From assembly GCF_025526975.1 (NCBI RefSeq), contig NW_026515689.1, positions 186,001 to 250,000 of the forward strand: a stretch of 64,000 nt of DNA, written 5' to 3'. Each line of letters opens with the position of its first letter. Positions within the stretch are counted from its first letter, which is position 1. Below are positions 46,440-49,646 of the stretch, piece by piece. The notes under the pieces are model-generated. The model was not told the origin of the DNA. It saw only the letters and a program-made list of their open reading frames with translations, and made no database searches. Made by a program: the position numbers and the translations under genes. Source of the DNA: Fimicolochytrium jonesii. Lineage: Eukaryota.

Positions 46440-47063
46440 TTTTGCTGAGGCCTGCCGTGTAGAGGCCTGTGGGCCTCAATGCTAGGGGATGTTCCTCAAA
46501 CCGACGGATTTGGTTTGGTCTAAGCACACGCCCAGAATACTGGGTGAAGCGTTCTAGTGAGAATTATAATAGCCGAGAAATCATCGAATGCGCTGTTGGT
46601 TCAATAATCTGCCACCCGTCCCAAAGTCTAATAGTATCTGATCTCGAGGATTGGGGGCACTGTCAAACCCAGTCCGCTCGCTTACCAAATATATTCGGCG
46701 CGATACTTTAAACTTAGTCCAAAACTCGTGGTCTCACGGGACTCTTGTGGCTTGTGACAAGGGCCTACCCCCGAGGAGATCGTCTGTCGGCGTATCTCTC
46801 TGTGCGGCGTCTCAGAAGAGGATGATTTAAGATGCGTCATCACCATGTAATCGCGCTATCTCCCATTGGCATGCGCGAGTCCCCCGTTCAGTTCCCAGCA
46901 CCACCACACGTTTTCTCTGTCTTTTTCTCGAGGGAGTTTCTCCGACCTTCATCAACCAAAAAGAAGGGAAATCCCTACTCTGTATATTTTAGCGCATCCC
47001 GTTCTCCGTCGGGCCTCTTGTCACACCGATCTCCTTCTGCCTCTTATTACGCTCTTTCGCTGC

Positions 47064-47094
47064 TGCGACTGACGTTTTGCGACTGACGTTTTGC
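47064..47094 (+). repeat. Perfect 14-bp tandem duplication (TGCGACTGACGTTT)x2 upstream of the CPA1 uORF
   Basis: tgcgactgacgttt tgcgactgacgttt tgc; each copy contains TGACGT. Confidence 0.75.
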
Positions 47095-47200
47095 TTCCGT
47101 CGCCTTTTACTTCCTTTTCCCAGCGTTCTTTCCCACCCGGCTGAACGCTCCTCAACTTACTTCAACTCAGCCCACCTTGCTTTGCGGTTCGCCATATCGA

Positions 47201-47414
47201 ATGTACTCCCACTCTGCCGAAAAGGTTTCAAGCGACTATATCAGCGACCAGGTATGTGCACCGCGACGACGGGGAGAGTGGGAGCTTTCACGCGTATTGT
47301 GACCTTGTCGGCCCACGCAATGACAACTATTCCAGCCTCCTCTAACGCCATTTGCTTTTCTTCACCTCCCTTTTTCCGTCATGCCAGGTTTACAAGACTG
47401 CCGAATACCAGTGA
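47201..47414 (+). CDS. Upstream ORF encoding an arginine attenuator peptide (AAP)-like peptide, 25 aa, intron-split
   Basis: Exon 47201-47251, intron 47252-47387 (GTATGT...TCTAAC...CCAG) and exon 47388-47414 give MYSHSAEKVSSDYISDQVYKTAEYQ*. The DYISD core sits at positions 12-16 and the stop is 112 nt before the CPA1 ATG. Confidence 0.88.
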
Positions 47415-47526
47415 ACTCCTTTGCTCAGCCAGTCATATATCTTTTTGAGATATAACGTTGGCCACATTGAAAATCGTCTAGCAACACCTACGAAACCAAA
47501 AATTCGCACTGGTTATTCTGTCAGAA

Positions 47527-49077
47527 ATGCAAACCGTAGTCAAAAAGGTTGCTCCCTCGACCCTCTTCGGGGTGTCCCGAGCCCTGATGCGTCGCAGCTG
47601 CACTCCTCTGGCTGTGACAGCGTCCCCGGTCGCCCTGAGCGGGACGCGTCTCCTTGCTTCCGTATCAGGAGGAAACCCTCGCCTCAAGGCCCAACTCGAC
47701 AAGACGGAAAAGGCCAAGAAACACCAGCAATACGTCGCCCAGTCTGTGCCAGAACCACCTCGCTTGCCTGCTACTTTGCGGTTACAGACGGGCCAAACTT
47801 TCGCTGCTACTTCTTTCGGTGCGCCTCTCAAAGGAAAGGAAAACAAGGTCGGAGGCGAAATCGTCTTCACGACGGCCCTTGTCGGTTATCCCGAGTCCAT
47901 GACCGACCCATCGTACCGTGGACAAATCCTCGTGTTTACCCAACCTCTCGTCGGCAACTATGGTGTACCTGGCCAAACCCGTGACGAATTTGGCTTACTC
48001 AAGCACTTCGAGGCCGATGGGATTCAAGTTCAAGGCATCATCGTCAGTGATTACGCAGCGAAATACTCCCATTGGAATGCCGTCGAGTCGTTGGGCCAGT
48101 GGTGCGCTCGTTACGGAGTTCCTGCGTTGACAGGCGTTGACACTCGCGCCGTCGTCACATTGTTGAGGGAACGCGGATCTACATTGGCAGAAATCTGCAT
48201 TGGTGACAACTCCCCGACAGACCTGCGGGAAAGTGCCCCTATTGAGACGAAAGACCCTAACGCGAAGAATCTCGTAGCTGAGGCGTCAACCAAGACGGTG
48301 ACATTGTACAATCCGGACGGCGATAGCACAATCCTGCTCATCGACTGTGGCGCCAAGCAGAACATCATTCGCTCGCTCGCCAAGCGCGGAGCCCGCGTCA
48401 TGGTCGTCCCATGGAACTTTGACATCGTTCGTCACTACAACGCCATTCAAGAGGCAAGCAGCACTTTTGCGAAACCTGGTGCCAACACCTCACACGCATT
48501 CGATGGTATCTTCCTCTCGAACGGTCCTGGTAACCCACAAGCGGCCTACCAGACTGCTCGCAACCTCCGTGCCTTCATGCAACTCCCACAAGCCAAGACC
48601 TTACCCATGTTTGGCATCTGCATGGGCAACCAACTCATGGGTCTGGCCGCCGGGTTCGGTTCGTACAAGCTCAAGTACGGCAACCGCGGCCACAATCAGC
48701 CTGCCATCAACCTCGTGACGGGCAAATGCGTCATCACGTCTCAGAACCACGGTTACGCCCTCGACGATACGAGCGTCGCGACCGGACACCCTGTTCCTGA
48801 AGATTGGATCCCCTTCTTCCGCAACGCTAATGATGGTTCAAATGAAGGAATTCGTCACGTCGCCCACCCATGGTCGTCCGTCCAGTTCCACCCCGAGGCC
48901 ATGGGAGGCCCTCTCGACACGGACTACCTCTTTGACGAGTTCTTGAGCGATGTCAGGGAATACAAGAAGCGCCGCAACCTTAACCGACTCATCCCGGGTC
49001 GCGAGGCTGAGATTGGTGCCACTCGCATCGAGGAGGAATCACAGCCGCTGTTGAAGAAGCGCGGAACTGTTGCATGA
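47527..49077 (+). CDS. CPA1: Arginine-specific carbamoyl-phosphate synthase small (glutaminase) subunit, mitochondrial precursor
   Basis: Intronless ORF with 'GEIVFTTALVGYPESMTDPSYRGQIL', 'LSNGPGNP', catalytic 'FGICMGNQ', 'TSQNHGYA' and 'QFHPEA'. N-terminus is R/S/A-rich. Confidence 0.97.
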   Translation: MQTVVKKVAPSTLFGVSRALMRRSCTPLAVTASPVALSGTRLLASVSGGNPRLKAQLDKTEKAKKHQQYVAQSVPEPPRLPATLRLQTGQTFAATSFGAPLKGKENKVGGEIVFTTALVGYPESMTDPSYRGQILVFTQPLVGNYGVPGQTRDEFGLLKHFEADGIQVQGIIVSDYAAKYSHWNAVESLGQWCARYGVPALTGVDTRAVVTLLRERGSTLAEICIGDNSPTDLRESAPIETKDPNAKNLVAEASTKTVTLYNPDGDSTILLIDCGAKQNIIRSLAKRGARVMVVPWNFDIVRHYNAIQEASSTFAKPGANTSHAFDGIFLSNGPGNPQAAYQTARNLRAFMQLPQAKTLPMFGICMGNQLMGLAAGFGSYKLKYGNRGHNQPAINLVTGKCVITSQNHGYALDDTSVATGHPVPEDWIPFFRNANDGSNEGIRHVAHPWSSVQFHPEAMGGPLDTDYLFDEFLSDVREYKKRRNLNRLIPGREAEIGATRIEEESQPLLKKRGTVA

Positions 49078-49646
49078 GACTCCGTGTGTCTCTTCCTGGC
49101 CTACGTCAGTCGCCTTACGTCGATATGTAGTGCTCTATCCTCTCCCTCTCTGTCATGTGATCCTTCATCATTCGTTTCTTTTGCATCACTTTCTACTGCT
49201 AGTCAGTAGCTTTGTCTTCCTCCTTGTGCATGTTGTCATAAGAAGCTCATGTCTTCACACTTTCTGGTCAAAGTAATAAAGCTTTTCTTGGTCCATATCG
49301 ATGCTTGTGATCCCACCGGCTGTGTCGCTCAGTTGGACTGCCACGACACCCACCACAGAAGGAAAAAGGAACTCGATGGCACACCAGTCCTTCAAGATTC
49401 GACTGAGAATAAATATGACGTCTAGGGTATACTCAAAGAAATGCACAAAAATCCTTGAAAATCCAAAAAAGAAAATGGAAGCAATCGTCCTAAAACCGCC
49501 AGCAGTGAACGCCAGCGCTATGAGCCGACGATTGCTAAAGGATTCTCATCCCATACGGGGAGCTATACGGAGGGTTCCCGTAAAAAAAAACCAGTGCGCC
49601 ACGCCCCGTCGTTGCATCTATAGTGCGCCCGTGAGAAAGACAGGCG

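Follow-up and report, generated by a model that had tools for sequence, protein, structure and literature searches.

INTRODUCTION

The arginine attenuator peptide (AAP) is the product of a uORF (upstream open reading frame) and is described as stalling ribosomes at its own stop codon when arginine is in surplus (PMC7969011). The substitution D12N is described as abolishing this stalling, D12 being in contact with uL4, and on plant ribosomes, too, the Neurospora crassa peptide is described as causing arginine-responsive stalling (PMC7038982). Trp-19, which lies near U2609, is called important for stalling (PMC3299997). For the uORF of Saccharomyces cerevisiae CPA1 the residue given as critical is D13 (PMC7969011, PMC8370653). 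Both leaky scanning and nonsense-mediated decay (NMD) figure in the account of AAP control (PMC11550727), uORF occupancy and NMD are reported for the Cryptococcus orthologue (PMC7049704), and the relevant passages of further papers describe a look-alike in Toxoplasma and a homologue in Coprinopsis (PMC5587730, PMC8370653, PMC12230235).

Here we analyse a locus of Fimicolochytrium jonesii, contained in a stretch of 64,000 nucleotides (contig NW_026515689.1, positions 186,001 to 250,000; hereafter the window), in which a uORF split by a predicted intron precedes CPA1. Like the arg-2 AAP of N. crassa (P22702, PDB 2xl1; Pfam PF08252, Leader_CPA1), it is a uORF of 24–25 codons before the small subunit of the arginine-specific carbamoyl-phosphate synthetase (CPS), it carries D12, Y13, S15 and D16 in the same register, and its weak AUG is followed by a stronger main AUG. 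The Neurospora-like loci likewise have an intron within the core codons, although theirs lies inside codon 16 and that of the window after codon 17, in phase 0. Unlike the N. crassa peptide, however, the window peptide has a Y2-x-H4-x-x-E7 N-terminus and Q17-V18-Y19, and the two are identical at 6 of 24 residues. With the S. cerevisiae uORF it has in common its 25 codons, the gene that it precedes, the proposed stalling at the stop codon and the link to NMD (PMC7969011, PMC8370653).

RESULTS

A predicted spliced uORF directly upstream of CPA1

The features of the locus are collected in Table 1. The preliminary description had placed a uORF directly before CPA1, with its ATG at 47201, a splice junction at 47251/47388 and its stop ending at 47414. 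These coordinates proved exact, the splice signals conform to consensus, and the stop codon lies 112 nt ahead of the ATG at 47527.

Table 1. Features of the CPA1 leader and coding region (positions are those of the window)
Feature	Position	Strand	Description
AUG-free pyrimidine-rich stretch	46872–47200	+	probable transcript start region, predicted from sequence
uORF exon 1	47201–47251	+	codons 1–17; Y2-x-H4-x-x-E7 motif and core D12-Y13-I14-S15-D16-Q17
uORF intron	47252–47387	+	136 nt, phase 0, GT-AG; junction predicted from sequence
uORF exon 2	47388–47414	+	V18, Y19, K20 to codon 25; TGA 47412–47414, predicted stall site
Spacer, uORF stop to CPA1 start	47415–47526	+	112 nt, AUG-free
CPA1, arginine-specific carbamoyl-phosphate synthetase small subunit	47527–49077	+	PF00988 and PF00117

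The nearest protein to the window CPA1 is the public F. jonesii model P0001 (95% over 84% of the query). This model starts at the ATG at 46871, its first 37 residues matching 46871–46981 of the window exactly, skips both the uORF and the N-terminus that begins at 47527 (47527–47745), and runs past the end of the open reading frame (ORF) towards 49206; it is likely to be a mis-model. The first 60 residues encoded from 47527 are basic (nine Arg and Lys, one Asp or Glu), with a charge like that of the Geranomyces and Gaertneriomyces N-termini, and would resemble a mitochondrial presequence. Trees were built by quick IQ-TREE searches with SH-aLRT as the only support measure, the larger from 58 homologues (out of 120) together with 31 of the 80 loci, the smaller from 30 homologues and 15 loci. 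They place the window CPA1 in a Spizellomycetales clade (SH-aLRT 99), so that the host, previously described as an apparently early-diverging fungus, is a chytrid.

The uORF AUG is in a weak context, with C at −3, and the CPA1 AUG has G at −3. In this the window fits a wider pattern, since a pyrimidine occupies −3 at 16 of 16 uORF AUGs tallied and a purine occupies −3 at 14 of 16 main AUGs. The uniform weakness of the uORF start contexts fits what leaky scanning needs. In the spliced leader the uORF AUG is the sole AUG between 46881 and the main start, against four in the unspliced leader; further upstream there are ATGs at 46588–46871, and the ORF from 46832/46871 ends at 47086. The upstream region is common to CPA1 and a divergent minus-strand gene that starts near 46440. 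No Gcn4-type TGACTC site was found in 46441–47200. A perfect 14-nt tandem duplication, with TGACGT within each copy, is present at 47064–47091, probably in promoter or leader.

Exon 1 ends in DYISDQ, and exon 2 supplies eight codons, beginning with VYK, before the TGA, giving a spliced uORF of 25 codons. The intron has a GTATGT donor and a branch-point motif CTAAC at 47342–47346, the last 40 nt are 80% pyrimidines, the acceptor is the first AG past the branch point, and CCAG/GT flanks both ends. Acceptors at 47335, 47396, 47411 and later positions were rejected for their lower matrix scores, 47335 lying in addition upstream of the branch point. On paper, exon 1 could also be joined in frame to CPA1 by way of the AG at 47480–47481, a form that was set aside as unsupported. 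The scoring matrix described below selects the junction only weakly by itself, because other splices from the ATG at 47201 reach 38.9 bits; the assignment thus draws chiefly on the splice signals and on comparison with relatives, among them an uninterrupted uORF of a Rhizophlyctidales relative (L003) that reads QVYK at the same positions. As had been noted previously, retention of the intron replaces the residues after V18, and the retained form is computed to be a 33-aa ORF. Three AUGs lie inside the intron (47254, 47320 and 47381). On 46500–49400, coverage by the one RNA run used (6% of words found) is confined to portions of the CPA1 coding sequence, including one 217-nt piece with three differences, and 46500–47760 is uncovered.

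The uORF encodes a homologue of the AAP

A scoring matrix was derived from 12 uninterrupted Trp-type environmental uORFs, excluding the window and L003, and was used to score intronless or one-intron ATG ORFs of 18–40 aa on both strands of the window (64,308 models). The spliced uORF ranks first of the 64,308, with 42.7 bits. The best of the 64,278 models that start from other ATGs reaches 7.8 bits, the null distribution having a mean of −21.5 and a standard deviation of 6.2. A profile of 11 non-Dikarya rows, which include the two exons of the window, finds the AAP entry 2xl1 as the best of 177,635 PDB sequences (E = 0.002). This is the profile on which we rely, a second one that contains two Neurospora-like rows reaching 2xl1 at E = 1.3e-9. 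With an HMM of 13 Trp-type uORFs the scores are 49.0 bits for the N. crassa AAP, 34.0 for the spliced peptide, 32.6 for the retained form and 27.3 for L003.

The residues identical to those of the N. crassa AAP (P0128) are M1, S10, D12, Y13, S15 and D16, and across positions 9–20 the two peptides match at 5 of 12. The window has Q17-V18-Y19 where the N. crassa AAP has H17-L18-W19. Both the register and the identification as an AAP homologue given in the preliminary description are borne out by these comparisons. At the level of residues the window peptide is presumably also like the yeast CPA1 uORF, in the KT that follows position 19.

Judged on its sequence, then, the window uORF is a homologue of the fungal AAP. 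It shows the position before CPA1, the D12-Y13 register and the weak uORF start that are features of the family; Trp19 is absent, Tyr standing in its place, and we therefore class the peptide as a variant AAP and not as a plain member.

The Trp-type uORF of L009, which is identical to the window peptide at 16 of 22 residues, scores 21.1 bits with PF08252, above the cut-off of 18.5, and among seven early-fungal Trp-type uORFs two pass (L009 and L023), two fall below the cut-off and three give no match. PF08252 gave no match for L003, for the unspliced form of L004 or for the unspliced stretches of the window (the 33-aa retained form and the 20-aa exon 1 form). Single-sequence searches of the PDB gave none for L003 or for the 33-aa retained form. 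Residues 1–18 of the Paraphysoderma model P0103 look AAP-like by eye and score only 4.7 bits, which makes them a lead and not evidence; word-index searches with this N-terminus and with the small-peptide alignment brought up no new relatives.

Distribution of residue 19 among relatives

CPA1 relatives were sought by scanning metagenome contigs; of the 313 obtained the best 80 were kept, many of these loci being near-duplicates. Among the best 80 of the 313, the uORF has Trp19 at 70 loci and Tyr19 at two (L003 and L004), it is degenerate at one (L061), and at seven an AAP was not found; several of the seven have short upstream sequence and two give weak partial matches. The Trp19 uORF is uninterrupted at 29 of the 70 loci, and at the other 41 it was obtained through an intron picked by the Trp-weighted matrix, so that these are less independent. 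AAP uORFs are thus present at a large majority of these loci.

When 1.84 billion proteins were searched with a profile, 19 matched; two of these (P0122 and P0138) are repetitive proteins and were dropped as chance. P0131, from Cladochytrium tenue, has Tyr19, and its accession adjoins that of the CPA1 of the same species on a 3,355-nt contig. Two further predicted proteins, candidates for uORFs of CPA1, are P0135 from a Chytriomyces species, with Tyr19, and P0134, with Phe19. In some gene predictions the exons of an AAP uORF have been joined to CPA1 (P0126 and, weakly, P0103) or to a neighbouring gene (the C-terminus of P0135), and such fused models are a route by which AAP peptides enter protein databases.

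Six sequences in all have Tyr or Phe at position 19, namely the window, L003, L004, P0131 and P0135 with Tyr and P0134 with Phe. Asp16 is replaced by Glu in four of them (L003, P0131, P0134 and P0135), and D12-Y13 and the aromatic-Lys pair are kept in the five Tyr-type sequences. The CPA1 of L003 groups with those of Rhizophlyctis and Borealophlyctis (SH-aLRT 99). Its uORF has no AUG within 205 nt upstream and is identical to the window peptide at 14 of 22 residues, and it ends in EQVYK; 7 of these 14 common residues are encoded by different, synonymous codons. L004, a chytrid-side locus, has Tyr19 through a putative intron.

By grouping, the Trp19 loci include Neocallimastigomycota (L001), Mortierella (alpina; L009), Rhizopus (L006), Glomeromycotina (L019 and others), Zoopagomycota (L030, with weak tree support) and the Neurospora-like group. 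No Trp-type uORF was found in the core chytrids sampled, a small set of five Tyr-type sequences and L061. Tyr19 is seen in three chytrid orders. The natural Trp-to-Tyr variant first noticed in the window is therefore common to several orders, and it looks like a lineage trait and not decay. Trp19 is probably ancestral and Tyr19 derived within the chytrids, as Trp is retained both in the outgroups and in those anaerobic gut fungi that were examined; the sample behind this comprises five Tyr sequences and one Phe sequence, L004 being unplaced.

The degenerate uORF of L061 (39–122), on the Rhizophydiales side, keeps the N-terminal half (EKVSNDYI) and continues into a hydrophobic, non-AAP C-terminal half, for which decay, frameshift or assembly error are possible causes. 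Such a case would mean that chytrids can lose AAP function. In anaerobic gut fungi CPA1 falls into two clusters (P0020 and P0044). Close to the first is L001, where a Trp-type AAP that carries Val16 lies at 577–663; in the second, an AAP was not found before CPA1 in L002 (1–450) or L005 (1000–2000), and L005 may be chimeric, with an ABC-transporter-like coding sequence (recognized by eye) reaching almost to CPA1. At seven Glomeromycotina loci (L007, L011, L012, L014, L015, L018 and L020) the core reads DYIDIQ, with Asp15 and Ile16 for Ser15 and Asp16 and with Trp19 kept. By its sequence this is a second lineage-specific AAP variant.

The introns of these uORFs also vary in position. At 37 loci the intron interrupts codon 16 and at four loci codon 18, whereas that of L004 follows codon 16 and that of the window follows codon 17. 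Across fungi, four positions within the AAP core thus fall within seven nucleotides (window, L004, L014, L016, L017, L022, L025 and others), which suggests intron sliding or repeated gain.

An N-terminal motif of early-diverging fungi

The Y2-x-H4-x-x-E7 motif is common to the early-fungal uORFs, and the Neurospora-like ones are without it. In the alignment of non-Dikarya sequences, conservation is 90% or more at each of Y2, H4, D12 and Y13; the Y2/H4 pair is missing from the Neurospora-like and Glomeromycotina sequences. The Trp-type early-fungal AAPs (L009, L006, L030 and L001) are like the window peptide in their Y2-x-H4 N-terminus and in Q17, but all have Trp19 where the window has Tyr19.

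A wider, and rather speculative, proposal is that the core chytrids have a distinct Tyr19 class of attenuator. It would be built on the early-fungal scaffold with an N-terminal Y-x-H-x-x-E module that was lost in Dikarya, it would answer to another arginine threshold or effector, and the Neurospora and yeast form would be the derived, trimmed one. We hold this to be conceivable though doubtful. If true, the supposedly essential Trp19 would be a replaceable contact.

DISCUSSION

Proposed mechanism and alternatives

The reading that we prefer, with a probability of about 0.78, is that the two exons encode a 25-residue Tyr19 homologue of the AAP that likely represses translation of CPA1 by stalling at its stop codon in high arginine, a mechanism carried over from the Neurospora and yeast system. 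Splicing of the intron would be constitutive, so that from 46881 on the leader would contain no AUG but that of the uORF. At low arginine most scanning ribosomes would leak past this weak AUG and initiate CPA1 at 47527; at high arginine the nascent peptide would arrest the ribosome on the TGA at 47412. Its D12 would then be at the uL4 constriction and its aromatic residue 19 closer to the peptidyl-transferase centre, Tyr19 replacing Trp as the aromatic contact. The stalled ribosome would block scanning and may trigger NMD.

It is unlikely, in our view, that the Tyr19 peptide is instead a retuned sensor, one that still stalls but at a markedly different arginine threshold, in response to another effector, or exclusively on chytrid ribosomes whose tunnel has changed to match. 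What speaks for retuning is that six sequences have Tyr or Phe against Trp at 70 of the best 80 loci, that four of the six also have Glu for Asp16, and that the N-terminal motif of the early-fungal uORFs is missing from the Neurospora-like ones. The exchange is nevertheless of one aromatic residue for another, and there is no departure from the Trp-type in D12 and Y13, in length, in position or in the AUG contexts. The N. crassa AAP, moreover, is described as stalling plant ribosomes with arginine (PMC7038982), which argues that the tunnel contacts are not lineage-specific. A second alternative, that sensing was lost along with Trp19 and that the uORF is now either a relic or a constitutive damper of CPA1 that is blind to arginine, would agree with the importance ascribed to Trp19 (PMC3299997), with the fall of the Tyr-type peptide tested below the PF08252 model, and with the degenerate L061. 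We consider it very improbable, as the peptide is conserved between orders through synonymous codon changes, and the five Tyr-type sequences keep D12-Y13 and the aromatic-Lys pair, neither of which a sequence-independent damper needs.

The preliminary description had also raised the possibility of a splicing switch, in which regulated intron retention turns the attenuator off or alters its output. The part of this that stands is that the residues past V18 do change in the retained form. There is in addition a 13-nt inverted repeat across the donor, pairing exon 1 47206–47218 with intron 47272–47284, and repeats of this kind are infrequent, 3 of 299 window tiles of 214 nt having one. The case for a switch itself fares badly. 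Donor, branch point and pyrimidine tract are all consensus, the fold of 47195–47300 is no stabler than those of shuffled sequences (z = −0.75), and retention would add three upstream AUGs, so that repression would rise and the main AUG would not be freed. The intron is, furthermore, at four positions among relatives and not at a shared one, so that no conserved switch is evident. We give this explanation hardly any credence and keep to constitutive removal of the intron and stalling by the spliced Tyr19 peptide as the preferred reading.

Age and significance of the Tyr19 form

The AAP system itself is known, and the Tyr19 form of the chytrids is a natural variant of it. The suggestion made at the outset, that AAPs are older than Dikarya, agrees with the presence of AAP uORFs at most of the 80 CPA1 loci, non-Dikarya included, but is likely not new. 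Hood et al. in 2007 and Spevak et al. in 2010 reportedly listed AAPs across fungi, non-Dikarya among them, and are said to have noted varied intron positions, and that the system is so old has probably been published already. Our literature search found no account of a chytrid AAP or of Tyr19; its coverage was limited, and so it does not show that the variant is unpublished.

The gain is incremental. On the side of annotation there is a gap, in that neither the uORF nor the likely presequence is part of the public gene model, and PF08252 misses the Tyr-type peptide that was tested (L003). For the peptide family, the role of position 19 in arginine sensing has been left open by low-resolution structures. 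A lineage-wide natural substitution at a residue described as important for stalling, together with the N-terminal motif of the early fungi, provides ready-made variants with which to address it.
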